This document shows positions 213 to 47,696 of a stretch of 49,248 nucleotides of DNA, one piece after another. Origin of the DNA: a virus. Lineage: Duplodnaviria; Heunggongvirae; Uroviricota; Caudoviricetes. A program made the position numbers and the translations under genes. The stretch lies in the IMG/VR virus record IMGVR_UViG_2734482538_000012. One strand, written 5' to 3'. The notes under the pieces are model-generated. The model did not search any database. It was given only the letters and a program-made list of their open reading frames with translations, and was not told the origin of the DNA. The number at the start of each line of letters is the position of its first letter. Position 1 is the stretch's first letter.

Positions 213-797
213 TTACTCCCTGACAGGGTTCGTAGGCCACTCAATATCAGGTGCAGTTGACGTATCAACACGGTTCAGCAATACCCGATACTTTTTCCAT
301 GCTTCCAGCAACGAGATTTCTTCCTCCGTTGCAATTTCCAGATCTGCAGCATCCTGAAGCGGCGCAATATGCTCACTGGCTACCTGCATCAGGTTGTTTT
401 TTGTTTCTTCCGCCTCCCGGATCCGGAACAGTTTTTCTGCTTCCGTATCCTTCACCCAGGCTGTGCCGTTCCACTTCTGAAACTCCCCTTCCGGCGATAA
501 CCAGGTAACATTTTCCGGTAACGGACCGAGTTCAGAAATAAATAACGCGTCGCCGGAAGCCACGTCATAAACCGTTTTACCCCGATGATCTTCAACGAGA
601 TGCCACGATGACTCATCACTGTTGAAAACAGCCACGAAGCCAGCCGGAATATCTGGCGGTGCAATATCGGTACTGTTTGCTGGCAGACCTGTATGAGGCG
701 GAATATATGCATCACCTTCACCAATAAATTCATTAGTTCCGGCCAGCAGATTATAAATTTTTATGGTCCGTGGTTGTTCACTCATTCTGAATGCCAT
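213..797 (-). CDS. tfaR: Tail fibre assembly protein (Tfa family)
   Basis: 194 aa ORF directly downstream of the side tail fibre gene, start codon overlapping its stop; N-terminus [20 protein letters not shown] matches my recollection of Rac TfaR and lambda Tfa. Confidence 0.85.
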
Positions 798-31067: not shown

Positions 31068-31655
31068 TTTTCCTCACATATGTCATATAGTAAAGGATTA
31101 TATATACCGTTGTTTTGGACGCTCAAACAGCGAATCAGATCAAATAAAACGCACATTTGTTAACATTTACACAAAGTCTGCGTGGGATATTCTGAAAGAA
31201 TATCCATAATGTGGAGAGAATCTATTGAAGTGCATGGTGCCGGGTGCCTCCCGGTGAACAAAATGTTCGTGATACCTGTCGGCGACAGAAAAGGTTAATG
31301 GTATCACCCCACCGCACAGGGGGATTCACCATGCAGGAGTTTTCTTAGCAAACTCACTGCGCGCCCGGCAACTCCCAACCACATAAAATGCGGAGTTTGT
31401 GGCATTTATGCATATAACTCGCAGGAATTATCTTAAAAAACTGATGTCGATCCGGATTAAAAAGAAGCAGGTCATCATCAGATGACTGGAAAAAAGGAAA
31501 ACAAAAAATACTCATCATACAGTTTTGATTGCAGGGATGAGCCTGCTATGCACAATATGCAGAATATAAGCAAGATAAAAATATGCAGGCATATTATTTC
31601 GGATCTTGTTATTAACACAACCTTTTTAATAATCATTTGGCATACAATAAACCAG

Positions 31656-32654: not shown

Positions 32655-32941
32655 AAATGACCTTTCTTTCTCCAGATTTCTTGTGTGCGAAAAACCCCTT
32701 CAGCATGCATCAGGCGCAATTCTTCTTTGGTGTAATCGCTGGTTTTTACCCGCCCGTCGATTAGATCGTGGCATGAGCTACAGGCTATCGCCGCCTGCAT
32801 ATCATGTGGTTTTGTCGCTGTTCCGCACGTCCCCGCCAGCCTGTAATGCGCCAGCACAGAGGTTTCGGGATTGTGATTGCAGTAGCCAGGGATTCTGATC
32901 TGGCACATCTGGCCTTTAGCCGCTTTACGTAAATTCACCAT
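32651..32941 (-). CDS. Nin-region Cys/His-rich protein (YbcO/DUF1364-like)
   Basis: 96 aa; Cys/His pattern CQIRIPGYC...H...C...H...CSSCHDLIDG; same length and gene context as DLP12 YbcO as I recall it. Confidence 0.55.
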   Translation of the reverse strand: MVNLRKAAKGQMCQIRIPGYCNHNPETSVLAHYRLAGTCGTATKPHDMQAAIACSSCHDLIDGRVKTSDYTKEELRLMHAEGVFRTQEIWRKKGHL

Positions 32942-33540
32942 TACGCAAACTCCAGTAGTTGTGCGGCCACATTTTCAACTTCCTCCTGAGAGGAGAATTT
33001 ACGGAACAGAATCCAGTTCCACAGCACATTCAGTACAGATTTATAAACCTGCTGAAACTCGACTTCGTCCATATTCGCAAAAGCGATGGATTTTGCCCGA
33101 CGCCCACGGCTACCGTCCGGATAAATATGCTCGGTGTAAAATCCGGCCTGAATGGTTACCCACTCGCGGAAAGCCTCAAACGACTTTAGCAACGCCGTAT
33201 CCCGGGTTCTACGAGTCGCAACGGTGTTAAGGTATTGCTCTGCGGCATCACTCAGGGCTGGCGTGTGTTCCCGACCAACTGATTCGCACAGGTAATCAAC
33301 GAAACCAGACAGCAGTTCTCGTTCGCGAGGCGTGATCGCCCCACCGACCGGAGTCCAGTAATCGAATCCCAGTTGCAGGAGTTTGAAAAAACGCTTGTGG
33401 AATGCGTAGTTACGCACACGCTTAAAGTCTGCGTGTATCCACTCACCTATTTTGATTTGATGCAGAAAATCGCAACTCTCCGGCGTCGCCGGGAGAAGTA
33501 AACCAGAAGAGGTTTGTTTGACCAGTTGTATATGCGCCAT
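32941..33540 (-). CDS. Nin-region hypothetical protein
   Basis: 199 aa ORF with ATG at 33540, translationally coupled to the downstream gene; no recognisable motif. Confidence 0.45.
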   Translation of the reverse strand: MAHIQLVKQTSSGLLLPATPESCDFLHQIKIGEWIHADFKRVRNYAFHKRFFKLLQLGFDYWTPVGGAITPRERELLSGFVDYLCESVGREHTPALSDAAEQYLNTVATRRTRDTALLKSFEAFREWVTIQAGFYTEHIYPDGSRGRRAKSIAFANMDEVEFQQVYKSVLNVLWNWILFRKFSSQEEVENVAAQLLEFA

Positions 33541-33820
33541 TTCTCAATCTCTCGATGGCGCAGCGCAGCAGATGCCAGTTGTTCAGGCTGACGAATAAAG
33601 TATAAATAAACTGGCTATGGTGTAAAGCCCCACATAGCATGAACAAACACTACATATCAAATAGCTGGTACAAGGATAGAAATACGACACTTATTATTAA
33701 AAACGATTAGATAAATTACATTTTAATGTTATGCAAAAGTTCTTTTTTATCATAACATTTCAATAAAAGCATTACAGATGCAATCATCCCGTCATCATCA
33801 ATTATTTAAGGTGGTTAAAC

Positions 33821-33907
33821 ATGGAAAATAACAAGTTCGCACATCTCGCTCCTTTTTTATCCGTAATCCTTTTCGCTTGTTGTTTTATATGGGCATTATT
33901 TTTATAA
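33821..33907 (+). CDS. Small hydrophobic peptide (28 aa) with a strong ribosome binding site
   Basis: aaggtgg 7 nt upstream of the ATG; hand translation MENNKFAHLAPFLSVILFACCFIWALFL, a single predicted transmembrane helix; lies in AT-rich intergenic DNA. Not in the ORF track (below 60 aa). Confidence 0.3.
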   Translation: MENNKFAHLAPFLSVILFACCFIWALFL

Positions 33908-34353
33908 AGTAGCCACATGATAAGTTGCTGGAATCATATTTCCCACTCAAGTCATTAACATTTGATAAGATATATCTAAAAGGACGCCTTTACATTATTT
34001 ATGCGTATATAATTTATTTATATACACAGTAAAGGTATCCTGGGAAAATATTTATCGTTAAAAAATACATCATAAATAATTAAGCTGAAATTTCAGAACA
34101 CAACTAATACACACAATAAGGTTCAGTAACAGTAATCTATGTGGACTACATCGAGATTTTTTGATTAAACTTTAATAACTTATTCCTAACACACAGAATG
34201 CATAAACTAAAAGTAAAACAAATAGTTATACGAAAAACAACCATATTTATTCTATCTTCTCCTCTAATCAACATATCAATTATGTGTTTCATAACAGCTT
34301 GACATAACCCTCCAAAAGATGCATTTTTAATGCATGTTTTGGAGGAGGTGGTT

Positions 34354-34692
34354 ATGACACACAAGAGAATTCCTAAAGATTGGGTAATCAAACGCTCAAC
34401 TCCGTTCTTCACAAAAGAGAACGTACCTTCAGCGTTATTAACACATCATAATACAGCAGCAGGTGTTTTTGGGCAGTTGTGCGTAATGGAAGGCACTGTA
34501 ACATATTATGGTTTTACTGATGAGAATGCTACTGAACCGGAGATAAAAGTAGTCATTAATGCTGGCGCTTTTGCAACAAGCCCACCACAATACTGGCACC
34601 GTGTTGAACTAAGCGATGATGCTCAGTTTAATATTAACTTTTGGGTCGCTCCAGACTTTTCGGGCGAAAAAGTCTATAGCACCAAAAAATAG
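34354..34692 (+). CDS. Hypothetical protein (112 aa), opposite strand to the surrounding late/nin genes
   Basis: Track ORF 34330-34692; likely start MTHKRIPKDW at 34354 preceded by ggaggaggtgg; terminator-like hairpin downstream. Confidence 0.55.
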   Translation: MTHKRIPKDWVIKRSTPFFTKENVPSALLTHHNTAAGVFGQLCVMEGTVTYYGFTDENATEPEIKVVINAGAFATSPPQYWHRVELSDDAQFNINFWVAPDFSGEKVYSTKK

Positions 34693-34721
34693 ATGATCAT
34701 ATTAAAAATGCTTTAACAGTC

Positions 34722-34758
34722 AGACCCGGCAGGGCTATCCCCGACGGGTCTCATTTTT
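34722..34758 (+). terminator. Putative terminator after the plus-strand gene 34354-34692
   Basis: Inverted repeat agacccg...cgggtct followed by cattttt; coordinates approximate. Confidence 0.4.
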
Positions 34759-35312
34759 GTAAATATATTGGTTCTACATTGACAGGAGACTTCAACCATA
34801 AGAAGTAATCTGAATACTTGAGCAATAAATTTACTTAAGATTAATGAGCGCACCTTGCCGGACAAAGATAAACCAAGGTAACACCTTTTTTCTAGCCAGT
34901 ATGTAATCAATCAGAAAGCCGCTCCATAAGAACAACAGCAAGACAATAAATTGCCATTACAGCCGCAATAGCCAGCGCACATTTGAGAACCAGCACGACA
35001 ACCCCCTGTATTAGACGCACACCAGTCCTGATAAATATGAGGCTGTCTCGTCAGTGATTCAATACAACTATTGGGTATAGTTTCTGTGATTTTATTCTGT
35101 AGAAATGGAACACAACAACCAGTCACCACCAGCACTTCCTTAAATGCTCTAAGTCAGAAACAAGCCAACATTTTAGTCCGCTTTGAGCGATCTGCAGACA
35201 TTGCTAGCAGCCTTCTGTGTGAATTCTCAGGGAGCAGGTCGGCATAGCATCACGTTGAGGCTCTTACCCTACTTGTTCACACCAACCCTAACTCCACAGA
35301 CTGATTCATAAA

Positions 35313-36314
35313 TTAGTAATCTGCGTGTTTCGCACTTTTCAGAAATGCTTTCATATTTTCATTAGGTCGCTCAATTTCGAAGTTACTTCCATATAACTCT
35401 TGTAATTTTGGCCATAACTTACTTAATAACCCTCTCCTGCGATAAAATGGATGTATCCAAACGGTAGATAGGTACGGAGAATTTGCATTTGAATTGTTTA
35501 TTGTGACCAGCCCAACTAAACATTGTCGATAACCACTATTATCCATTGATTGTATTTCTTCGACGAATGGATACGCGATTACATCAGTCCAACCATGATC
35601 GGTTGTATCCCATTGCATTCCGTCATGACATTCCTTCGACTGATAGCGGCGTAAAGCTACACACGCGAGCTTTTGCCAATCTGGAGAATTAATTGTGATC
35701 TCTTCATCGTATGACGCGCCTATTGGAGCGGGTATTGGTCTGATTAATCCAGCATGGCATTCATCATAGAACTTCATGTTTCCCTCAGAAACGTTGTGTA
35801 CGTTGGGTTGCTCCATGTGTGCGCCATTCAAAAATAGCTCTGATAGTAGTGTATCTACACTGTAATCTTTATTGATTATTGTCGGCTTAGAGTTTTTCTT
35901 ATTAAGGCCGCGAGTAACGATTTTTTGATCAATGTTAACAACATGGAATAATCCGTCGGGGAGGCTAGCGAACCACGATGGGGCATCGGACCAGAATAGC
36001 ATGCCTTTTGTACTTCTTAAGAGTTTAATTAAGTTAATACAAGCTTCTTCACTAGTCTTGCCGTTGATGCGAAGTATGTTAGGACTAAAGTAATATTCAT
36101 CCATATCAGGGAATGCAGCTTCGCAAAACTCCTGTACATAATTTAGCACCTGGATTCTACAGAGATCATCATAGCTGGTAATAACTAAGGGGGTATCTTC
36201 ATTACTATTATGATTATCAATAATGCAATCTATAGCGAGACTTACTGCTTTGCGTATCACTTCAGTTGAATCTAACGACTCTAAAAATTTTGTCTTTCGT
36301 GTGCGAATATCCAT
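35313..36314 (-). CDS. Hypothetical protein with C-terminal GNAT-like (acetyltransferase-like) region
   Basis: 333 aa ORF 15 nt downstream of the HEPN-motif gene; C-terminal segment CLVGLVTINN...STVWIHPFYRRRGLLSKLWPKLQELYG resembles the beta4-alpha3 acetyl-CoA-binding motif of GNAT enzymes; AT-rich codon usage. Confidence 0.5.
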   Translation of the reverse strand: MDIRTRKTKFLESLDSTEVIRKAVSLAIDCIIDNHNSNEDTPLVITSYDDLCRIQVLNYVQEFCEAAFPDMDEYYFSPNILRINGKTSEEACINLIKLLRSTKGMLFWSDAPSWFASLPDGLFHVVNIDQKIVTRGLNKKNSKPTIINKDYSVDTLLSELFLNGAHMEQPNVHNVSEGNMKFYDECHAGLIRPIPAPIGASYDEEITINSPDWQKLACVALRRYQSKECHDGMQWDTTDHGWTDVIAYPFVEEIQSMDNSGYRQCLVGLVTINNSNANSPYLSTVWIHPFYRRRGLLSKLWPKLQELYGSNFEIERPNENMKAFLKSAKHADY

Positions 36315-36329
36315 GTATGACCTGCGCTA

Positions 36330-37352
36330 TTAAAATTCATGAATGAACGGTTTGTCATCTGGTTGCAAAATGGTGGTTTTATTCGTTGCTACATTTAAAC
36401 TGTTGTAGAGCATAATTGCCAGGTTCGATGCATTTTCAATCAGCGTTTCAAGATCCTGGTCTGTAATCACTACGAGGTTCCCTTCTTTATCCTTTCCACC
36501 ACGATGCACTAAGTGATTTCGATTGAGGGTTGCCAATTCAATAGCTTCTATCGGACAGTCTTTTTGTACTTTTATATCGAATGTAGCTTCATAGCGGTCG
36601 ATTACCTTTTTAGTGCTATGCCAGCTTGCACTGATCAAGTGTTCCTTGATTGACCTGATTAGCTCTCCCCTAATTTTCTCGATGGGTTCACCCTTGAAAG
36701 GCAACGCAGCAATATCTTTGCTTACTTTAAATTCAGTCTTACCTTTTTCTATACAATTGGCTATGTAGACATCATCTTTCTCTATAGAATTAATGAATAG
36801 CTCAACATAAAGCGTTTCCAAAGCTGTAATAACATTCGTGTAGAGCAAACTAAGCAAGTGGTTTTTTTGCTGTTGTTCAGTTTTATCTTTTGCAAGTTTT
36901 TTTATTTTATCGATATTATCAATGAATTTTAAATACGGATTACCGGAAGACGTTACAGCGTCGTAGATATCATCATCGTACCAATCATCTATATTATTTG
37001 AGTTTCCAGACCAGTCAAAACATTGTGTTTGTAATTCATCTACTAATTCCTCAATATACTCAGATTTAACATATTGACCGAAGATGGATTGTAGTTCTTC
37101 GCTCGCATCATACGGCCCGCCATATATGTAAGCATAGCCACCTTCTCTACTTTCATACGGACAAGCATTTGCCGGATCTTCAAAGTTTTCAAAGAACCAG
37201 TTTTTCATTACTTCGAGTTGATCTTTTTTGCTTATGTATTTTAAAGATTTTAGTGGAACTTTCTTTCCATTAACCTCGAAAACAATTTTCACGATGTAAC
37301 GCTCCCTTGTATCAATTGCGCAACTATTATACCACAGCGAAATACAGGGCAT
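36330..37352 (-). CDS. Hypothetical protein with HEPN-type R-x4-H motif
   Basis: Track ORF 36330-37421; likely start at ATG 37352 (MPCISLWYN) with an AAGGAGG Shine-Dalgarno 6 nt upstream; canonical RNxxxH motif (LNRNHLVHRGG, encoded about 36504-36521) in a predicted helical C-terminal region; AT-rich. Confidence 0.5.
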   Translation of the reverse strand: MPCISLWYNSCAIDTRERYIVKIVFEVNGKKVPLKSLKYISKKDQLEVMKNWFFENFEDPANACPYESREGGYAYIYGGPYDASEELQSIFGQYVKSEYIEELVDELQTQCFDWSGNSNNIDDWYDDDIYDAVTSSGNPYLKFIDNIDKIKKLAKDKTEQQQKNHLLSLLYTNVITALETLYVELFINSIEKDDVYIANCIEKGKTEFKVSKDIAALPFKGEPIEKIRGELIRSIKEHLISASWHSTKKVIDRYEATFDIKVQKDCPIEAIELATLNRNHLVHRGGKDKEGNLVVITDQDLETLIENASNLAIMLYNSLNVATNKTTILQPDDKPFIHEF

Positions 37353-37490
37353 AACCTGCCTCCTTAAACTAACATACCATGAGCCAGCAATGTCCGCTAT
37401 TGGCACAAAGCGGACAACCACGCTAGCTCTCCCCTGTGCCAGAAAAATGTCAATTTACATATGAACTAATGCTCTTTGATCTAGTAACGT

Positions 37491-47507: not shown

Positions 47508-47696
47508 ATGTATAAAATTACCGCCACTATTGAAAAGGAAGGTGGCACTCCTACTAACTGGACAAGATATTCAAAATCTAAACTAACGAAATCAGAATGC
47601 GAAAAAATGCTCTCAGGTAAAAAAGAAGCAGGCGTTTCCAGAGAGCAGAAAGTAAAACTGATAAATTTTAATTGCGAGAAACTTCAGTCCTCGTGA
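47508..47696 (+). CDS. ydaC: YdaC-like small protein
   Basis: Track ORF 47436-47696; likely start MYKITATIEKEGGTPTNWTRY at 47508 preceded by ggagg; gene order ralR / ydaC / xis as in Rac. Confidence 0.6.
   Translation: MYKITATIEKEGGTPTNWTRYSKSKLTKSECEKMLSGKKEAGVSREQKVKLINFNCEKLQSS

Follow-up and report, generated by a model that had tools for sequence, protein, structure and literature searches.

A small open reading frame (ORF) of 28 codons lies on the plus strand of the 49,248-nt stretch of viral DNA IMGVR_UViG_2734482538_000012, which is called the window below and is meant at its full length. The ORF is carried by an E. coli prophage of the lambdoid, Rac type that is integrated beside ttcA. 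The small ORF sits in a gap without annotated genes (33541–34353). It is very probably a protein-coding gene, and its peptide is under purifying selection. Together with an AT-rich regulatory block and a leader it forms a mobile cassette of ~220 bp that is found in Rac- and Qin-type lambdoid prophages of Escherichia and Shigella. On balance we favor the reading that this is a lysogen-expressed 'moron' cassette encoding a single-pass inner-membrane microprotein; taken as a whole, this statement is held with moderate confidence. The parts of the cassette are:

~33688–33907, plus strand: the whole cassette of ~220 bp (regulatory block, leader and ORF).
33690–33737, no strand assigned: nearly invariant AT-rich block of 48 nt, 85–130 nt upstream of the ATG (conservation profile and alignments).
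33720–33764, plus strand: conserved inverted repeat with the core AATGTTATG / CATAACATT, spanning the candidate -35 and -10 elements (repeat search and both folds).
33731–33758, plus strand: candidate sigma-70 promoter, ATGCAA (33731–33736), a 16-nt spacer and TAACAT (33753–33758), from a weight-matrix scan.
33808–33814, plus strand: Shine-Dalgarno (SD) sequence AAGGTGG, 6 bases before the ATG.
33821–33907 (stop included), plus strand: small ORF of 28 codons, encoding MENNKFAHLAPFLSVILFACCFIWALFL, from the ORF list.

As a single sequence, the small ORF is mildly unusual and gives weak evidence. Of the dinucleotide shuffles of the region, 1.6% contain an ATG-ORF that has 25 codons or more, an SD-like motif and a grand average of hydropathy (GRAVY) above 1; six ATG-ORFs of such length are found where 5.1 are expected. 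Hydrophobic ORFs arise in AT-rich intergenic DNA through composition alone (PMC11188072). The small ORF is raised above chance because it is conserved across relatives. Copies were first retrieved from more than 120 viral contigs with a degenerate pattern for the N-terminal half of the peptide. All 131 recovered copies (131/131) have exactly 28 codons, and they comprise 18 distinct DNA sequences and 14 peptides. This pattern presupposes an intact N-terminus, and a second retrieval was therefore made through the non-coding upstream block alone. Here the ORF is intact in 128 of the 129 evaluable loci, the exception carrying IS3 between the SD sequence and the ATG. The small ORF is single-copy. 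The first-pass annotation, made on the window's sequence alone, had counted a lack of conservation in related prophages among the points that would speak against it, and the ORF is indeed conserved there.

The pattern of substitution is that of a coding sequence in this particular frame. The ratio of nonsynonymous to synonymous polymorphism (pN/pS) is 0.30 in frame; the two remaining forward frames have 1.20 and 0.64. Of the 31 variable sites, 17 are third positions (p = 0.011). The observed substitutions were also re-placed at random, and placements were scored that stay stop-free with at least the observed number of synonymous changes; this permutation gives p = 5e-5 for variants A-D and B-D and 0.01 for A-B. 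Limited to codons 14–28, outside the search pattern, it gives p = 0.01–0.07 for all six pairs. There are no indels in the ORF and several in the leader.

The element is common in E. coli chromosomes. With a 261-nt query around the ORF, matches are found in 1175 of 5426 complete E. coli genomes (~22%), 465 at 90% identity or above and 708 at 60–80% only. The 708 diverged genomes align only to positions 1–209 of the query, corresponding to 33700–33908, one base past the stop codon. When diverged copies (70–75%-identical relatives) are aligned, the homology likewise ends at stop+1. Among the GTDB representatives, one genome per species, the carriers are Shigella flexneri and Escherichia ruysiae only. 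tblastn against phage and plasmid collections returns four induced E. coli prophages and two mislabelled chromosomes and nothing else; the element is thus present in 4 of 50,697 deposited phage records, compared with 22% of E. coli chromosomes. No record shown annotates the small ORF, and the gap is without any gene in the RefSeq records inspected (annotated by NCBI PGAP for nearly all of them). The small ORF is absent from E. coli K-12, and the peptide gives no tblastn match in the K-12 Qin locus. K-12 small-protein surveys therefore could not see it.

The boundaries of the cassette are sharp. On the left, homology of loci L119 and L106 begins at ~33660–33688. On the right it breaks at the stop codon, and homology with the relatives in which hokD or iteS follows stops at 33908. 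The mobile unit is ~220 bp because of this left start (~33688) and the break at the stop. Four downstream contexts, unrelated to one another, are observed:

Context A: the AT-rich DUF1971 cassette (the window's own).
Context B: convergent hokD, whose terminator abuts the stop codon.
Context C: a strong bidirectional terminator, then the iteS/iteA anti-phage genes.
Context D: the end of a tail-fiber operon (L119 carries the cassette beside tail-fiber genes).

There are at least three upstream contexts as well, and in every context the cassette is antisense to the neighboring lytic genes. In the window, the small ORF and the DUF1971 gene that follows it are both on the plus strand, antisense to the early-right operon (ydaS-ydaT-ydaU-ydaV...nin-Q, running from the replication genes via nin to Q) on the minus strand. 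Accessory loci in this orientation are typically prophage genes expressed in lysogens (PMC7067206). The first-pass annotation had described an AT-rich intergenic region of ~0.8 kb, and this description holds: the gap is 813 bp long with a G+C content of 0.31. In 300-nt windows the G+C content dips to 0.27–0.31 within the gap, compared with ~0.50 in the flanking nin-type genes.

Sharp homology boundaries, variable placement and deviant G+C content (0.31 against ~0.50) are features of a phage moron. Like lambda bor and lom (the concept is taken as in PMC7067206), the cassette is a small autonomous insert of deviant composition and anti-lytic orientation that occupies varied positions. It differs from them in being extremely small (~220 bp, 28 codons), in having a promoter that is read from sequence motifs, and in lacking its own terminator in the window's variant.

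The slot to the right of the small ORF (the equivalent of 33908–35300; loci L003–L008) is a cargo hotspot. Its contents vary between hokD (with QueH), iteS/iteA, a DUF4145 protein, and a KilA-N protein with a truncated hok. Insertion sequence (IS) elements (IS3, IS421 and IS2) are frequent in it.

The peptide has two parts. The polar head, residues 1–8 (MENNKxAH), has a mean Kyte-Doolittle hydropathy of -1.4, while residues 9–28 are hydrophobic (mean 2.5) and form an uninterrupted stretch of 20 residues from L9 to L28. By hydropathy calculation alone, this stretch is predicted to be long enough for one membrane helix. Residues M1-E2-N3-N4, H8, P11-F12-L13-S14, C21, W24, A25, F27 and L28 are invariant. 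The single Lys in the head weakly suggests an N-in topology. The coordinates of the ORF, the near-consensus SD sequence upstream of it and the single hydrophobic helix of a 28-residue product all agree with the first-pass annotation. Its further statement that the ORF is strongly ribosome-bound is not supported, as it derives solely from the SD motif. By our own reading, the window's AAGGTGG makes ~5 contiguous pairs with the 3' end of 16S rRNA (UAAGG or GGUG). A purine-rich SD sequence is at a fixed place in all variants, as AAGGTGA, AAGGTAG or, in the commonest variant, the weaker AAAGTGA.

No family in Pfam, NCBIfam, PHROGs or PADLOC is matched by three variants of the peptide (NCBIfam and Pfam searched to E-values up to 10, PADLOC up to 1). 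Weak matches at E ~0.03–0.7, to a lipoprotein signal, an o-spanin and Sec20/tail-anchor helices, are noise. None of seven exact peptide variants is present in a collection of 15 billion proteins. A full HMMER scan of 1.84 billion protein representatives with a 33-aa extended query gives one spurious match and one mis-called 58-aa version (P0001), in which the in-frame TGA inside the SD sequence (AAGGTGA) is changed, so that the upstream frame fuses to the 28 codons. The peptide sequence was not found in literature full text and supplements, including the O157 Sakai small-gene paper and the Enterobacteriaceae microproteome preprint. The family of 28-codon genes thus appears unannotated and undescribed in the databases and literature searched. 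Small hydrophobic prophage proteins as a kind are already familiar, for example the unrelated YnfS.

Two other ways of reading the protein were considered and rejected. The window's variant contains a lipobox, LFAC, and the majority variants have VLCC or VFCC instead; cleavage there would leave only 8–9 hydrophobic residues. The lipoprotein or signal-peptide reading was dropped because the lipobox is not conserved. A longer ORF starting from ATGCAA in the upstream block is closed by an in-frame TGA in most variants.

The 48-nt block is the most conserved part of the cassette, ahead of the ORF, and in the loci examined it occurs only together with the ORF. It is probably an UP-element/-35 region, a regulator site, or both. 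Within it, TAGATAAATT matches the H-NS motif of PMC2094087 at 9 of 10 positions; it was rejected as an H-NS nucleation site, such matches not being enriched in the window (nine found, five expected). The hexamers of the candidate promoter vary only at weakly constrained positions (ATGMAA for -35; TAACAT, TAATAT or TAGCAT for -10). Although the spacer sequences are unrelated between variants, their length is fixed at 16 nt in each of the 127 evaluable copies; one further copy reads 17 nt owing to an N. From these elements transcription would start near 33765, giving a leader of ~55 nt. The inverted repeat that spans the two hexamers may be either an operator-like palindrome or a plus-strand RNA hairpin. 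Changes in the repeat convert G-C to G-U pairs on the plus strand and give A-C mismatches on the minus strand, so that if it acts as RNA, the plus strand is the one concerned. RNA covariation analysis of both strands found no double compensatory change in the repeat. A nut/boxA-like reading of the minus-strand sequence CGCTTTTAA was also rejected; the sequence is not conserved, and the cassette occurs at a tail-fiber locus as well.

In the favored reading of a moron encoding a membrane microprotein, host sigma-70 polymerase would transcribe the cassette in the lysogen from its own weak-consensus promoter, which the upstream AT-rich block may assist or regulate. The message would be translated from the SD sequence and the ATG at 33821. 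The 28-residue product would insert into the inner membrane as one helix, with the head MENNKxAH probably in the cytoplasm. There it would act on the membrane or on a membrane protein, by modulation or exclusion and not by antisense-controlled killing. Purifying selection on the ORF and one predicted transmembrane helix are what is expected of such a microprotein, and the conservation of head and helix speaks for a specific interaction more than for bulk membrane damage.

MgrB, MgtS, AcrZ, KdpF and PmrR are small inner-membrane regulatory peptides of E. coli and Salmonella. The small ORF resembles them in length, in its single helix with a short polar end, in its ordinary SD-led start, and in the conservation of both polar end and helix (H8, P11-F12-L13-S14, C21 and W24 are invariant). 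They differ from it in belonging to the core genome, usually beside or co-regulated with their target, whereas the small ORF is mobile, has changing neighbors and shows no homology to them. The first-pass annotation had offered the type I toxin and the small membrane regulator side by side, and the second is as compatible with the evidence as the first. A further likeness is to YnfS, a protein of 29 residues in the K-12 Qin prophage (L009, 2123–2212), which has a polar head, a Cys-Cys pair and a hydrophobic tail and is encoded antisense beside Q. YnfS is not homologous to the small ORF and lies on the other side of Q; the arrangement looks convergent.

Several points weigh against the moron reading. 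A standard promoter scan gives no plus-strand site in the cassette, and by consensus the candidate promoter is weak. In the window's variant the ORF is not followed by a clear terminator, and a strong one is present only in the variant followed by iteS. The 18 distinct ORF sequences fall into only about four lineages, and the selection statistics therefore rest on few independent events; in addition, the pattern of the first retrieval demanded an intact N-terminal half. Conservation is higher in the 48-nt block than in the coding sequence and could therefore in part be at the regulatory or RNA level. Modulation or exclusion as the activity is chosen by analogy alone; no partner, homolog or phenotype indicates what the activity is. 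Gene and product are known here from sequence alone.

The alternative that survives best, although we consider it rather unlikely, is a new prophage-borne type I toxin-antitoxin system. Here the peptide would depolarize or permeabilize the inner membrane and would be restrained by a minus-strand small RNA (sRNA), located over the leader and start codon or in the 48-nt block. The likeness to Hok/Gef, Ldr, Ibs, ShoB, TisB, DinQ and ZorO is real in design: these toxins have 19–50 residues and one hydrophobic helix, are chromosomal or prophage-borne, lie in AT-rich DNA and are often missed by annotation, and the small ORF (28 residues, below the ~60 of such toxins; hydropathy 2.5) shares a prophage cargo slot with hokD, to which it is convergent in the commonest variant. 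Another type I system, ralR/RalA, resides in the same prophage. The frequency of the element (22% of chromosomes against 4/50,697 phage records) would fit an addictive or host-useful element in grounded prophages. The likeness ends there. The small ORF has no sequence relationship to these toxins (no known toxin family is matched in NCBIfam or Pfam at E-values up to 10), is single-copy, and has no identifiable antitoxin RNA. Rfam contributes no RNA in 33300–35400 at permissive E-values, nor does a scan of the whole window at gathering thresholds place one here.

The message itself also argues against a type I toxin. Known type I toxin mRNAs are usually tightly folded. The mRNA of the small ORF is not unusually structured, with fold z-scores against shuffles of -1.39 in the window and -0.34 in the APEC O1 variant. 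Its SD sequence is exposed rather than stably sequestered, pairing only in a weak 6-bp helix that contains G-U pairs and occurs in one variant. Candidate antisense signals do exist. A promoter-like TTTCCA-16-TATGAT or AATAAT (9/12) covers the start codon on the minus strand in variants B, C and D, and in the window TTATCA-17-AATAAT lies on the minus strand at the 3' end of the ORF. Some variants have minus-strand terminator-like hairpins, which lie 25–55 nt before the ATG and where the block begins on the left, and the invariant 48-nt block could itself be an RNA gene. All of these minus-strand sites are weak, consensus-level matches and none is conserved in all variants; conservation of the promoter candidates does not extend to the window's variant, and promoter-like sites in the region are at the chance level for AT-rich DNA (four found, 6.4 expected). 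Consensus RNA folds are weak on either strand (about -5 kcal/mol; -5.3 kcal/mol on the minus strand, with one compensatory pair) and show almost no compensatory change, and synonymous sites along the ORF are free to vary. The resemblance to type I toxins in size and composition that the first-pass annotation drew stands; no toxin family and no tightly folded, SD-occluded mRNA were found to go with it.

It is improbable that the conserved unit is non-coding and the frame incidental, the unit being a promoter or operator, a leader RNA, a terminator cluster, or a source of antisense interference with early-right transcription into nin-Q. This explanation draws on the 48-nt block and the inverted repeat, which are at least as conserved as the ORF, and on eleven bases inside the ORF, CCTTTTTTATC, which are almost invariant over all variants (one synonymous change in two copies). 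In one variant, minus-strand terminator-like sites stand just upstream of the nin genes (four found, 0.4 expected). AT-rich composition gives hydrophobic ORFs, as noted above, and 38–53% of random substitution placements leave the frame open. What decides against it is that the bias of substitutions to synonymous and third positions is specific to the frame of the ORF, and that no copy departs from the start codon, the position of the SD sequence or the exact length. In four contexts homology breaks off at the stop codon, and at the tail-fiber locus a regulatory role toward nin-Q would be senseless. A leader peptide or upstream ORF controlling a downstream plus-strand gene, here the DUF1971 gene with which it shares its strand and which it precedes, is scarcely credible: this reading is contradicted because the downstream contexts vary (the neighbor is convergent, as hokD or iteS, or absent in most relatives), the DUF1971 gene lies ~450 nt away with its own -35 element and operator, and it is the sequence of the peptide that is conserved, not merely the act of translation.

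The remainder of the gap and its neighbors contain the following features:

32941–33540, minus strand: DUF1367 gene, left neighbor of the gap.
33569–33628, minus strand: conserved block facing the nin-type genes, with TTTACA-16-TATACT (33626 to 33599, 10/12), from the promoter scan and alignments.
33908–34298, no strand assigned: AT-rich spacer (G+C ~0.27–0.31) that travels with the DUF1971 gene and not with the small ORF.
34299–34338, plus strand: control region of the DUF1971 gene, with a perfect -35 TTGACA (34299–34304), 17 nt, and CATTTT, read from the sequence.
34316–34338, overlapping the -10/start region: NsrR-type 11-1-11 operator AAGATGCATTTTTAATGCATGTT, the core of an inverted repeat with 17-nt arms.
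34354–34692, plus strand: YeaR-like DUF1971 gene (112 aa), right neighbor of the gap.

The block at 33569–33628 is outside the cassette, being absent from L119 and L106. In some relatives, the hairpin that its promoter-like site overlaps has a terminator-like score, and the block is kept even where the downstream nin gene differs (APEC O1).

On the right side, the spacer 33908–34298 occurs only in the ~450 genomes that cover the whole 33400–34800 query. It yielded no convincing feature; promoter-like sites are at chance and Rfam gives noise only. The DUF1971 protein matches Pfam DUF1971 with E = 2e-26 and is 41% identical to K-12 YeaR; RefSeq labels the product DUF1971 or TehB family. The operator AAGATGCATTTTTAATGCATGTT has two mismatches to the ytfE operator AAGATGCATTTAAAATGCATCTT (PMC5320621). 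As in the NsrR regulon, it is an 11-1-11 repeat resembling AAGATGCATTTnAAATGCATCTT (motif from PMC5320621) and overlaps the promoter. It is the sole match in the window, where none is expected (0 in 100 shuffles). The upstream region of K-12 yeaR holds a similar repeat. The arrangement resembles the NsrR-repressed yeaR-yoaG operon of E. coli K-12 both in the protein and in the 11-1-11 NsrR-type repeat (PMC5320621). It differs in that the window's gene is prophage-borne and has no yoaG partner, and in that its operator is nearer to the ytfE consensus than is the K-12 yeaR site. The DUF1971 gene is probably nitric-oxide responsive, judging from these motifs. The first-pass annotation had suggested that the gap may carry the promoter of an oppositely oriented gene at 34354. 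The promoter is supported at the sequence level by TTGACA and the NsrR-type operator; the orientation is not, as the gene is on the same strand as the small ORF and opposite only to the nin genes. A relative of 95% identity (L008, 3633–3758) has, directly after the DUF1971 insert, a hok truncated to 41 codons, which suggests that the insert landed between the small ORF and hokD. A hok remnant was also searched for in the window, and none was found.

In a fully matching RefSeq record, the gene order of the prophage starts with intR-xisR-ralR-recT-recE-racC-kilR-sieB, followed by the repressor pair, ydaT-ydaU-ydaV, DUF1627 and DUF977. It continues with two unnamed cargo genes, DUF1971, the gap, DUF1367, DUF1364, the DUF1133 Q-like antiterminator, the lysis genes and trkG. 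The two cargo genes (35313–37421, minus strand) lie between the replication and nin modules. Their proteins have 333 residues with a sub-threshold GNAT match and 363 residues with a sub-threshold match to a HEPN/RES N-terminal domain. They could be a toxin-antitoxin or defense pair; PADLOC matched no system for them. Rfam identifies the RalA antitoxin sRNA of the ralR/RalA type I system at 47514–47692 (minus strand, 225 bits) and the IS009 RNA family at 256–454 (minus strand, 221 bits). An STnc100 match at 31178–31364 (minus strand, 86.6 bits) lies ~750 nt downstream of the Q-like DUF1133 gene, at the position where a late-promoter leader RNA would be expected.

For Enterobacteriaceae, predictions of conserved microprotein clusters in intergenic DNA run to tens of thousands (PMC11188072). 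The small ORF is a gene present in ~22% of complete E. coli genomes and in Shigella and E. ruysiae, yet it is missing from annotations, Pfam, NCBIfam and PHROGs. At ~220 bp, its cassette shows how little DNA can make up a mobile phage moron. The NsrR-boxed YeaR-like neighbor suggests that some Rac prophages plug into the nitric-oxide response of the host. The small ORF stands at the conserved edge of a prophage hotspot with toxin-antitoxin and anti-phage cargo (hokD, relBE and IteAS), and this position makes it a cheap, well-defined candidate for a lysogen-expressed membrane effector. A toxic or phage-excluding peptide would found a new family, and a benign modulator would be one more microprotein of many. 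We think it unlikely that the small ORF is the founding member of a new prophage-borne family of membrane effectors, as a type I toxin with an RNA antitoxin in the 48-nt block or over the start codon, or as a 28-residue superinfection-exclusion or anti-phage peptide. If that were true, more than 20% of E. coli genomes would have such a family, and no annotation pipeline would see it.

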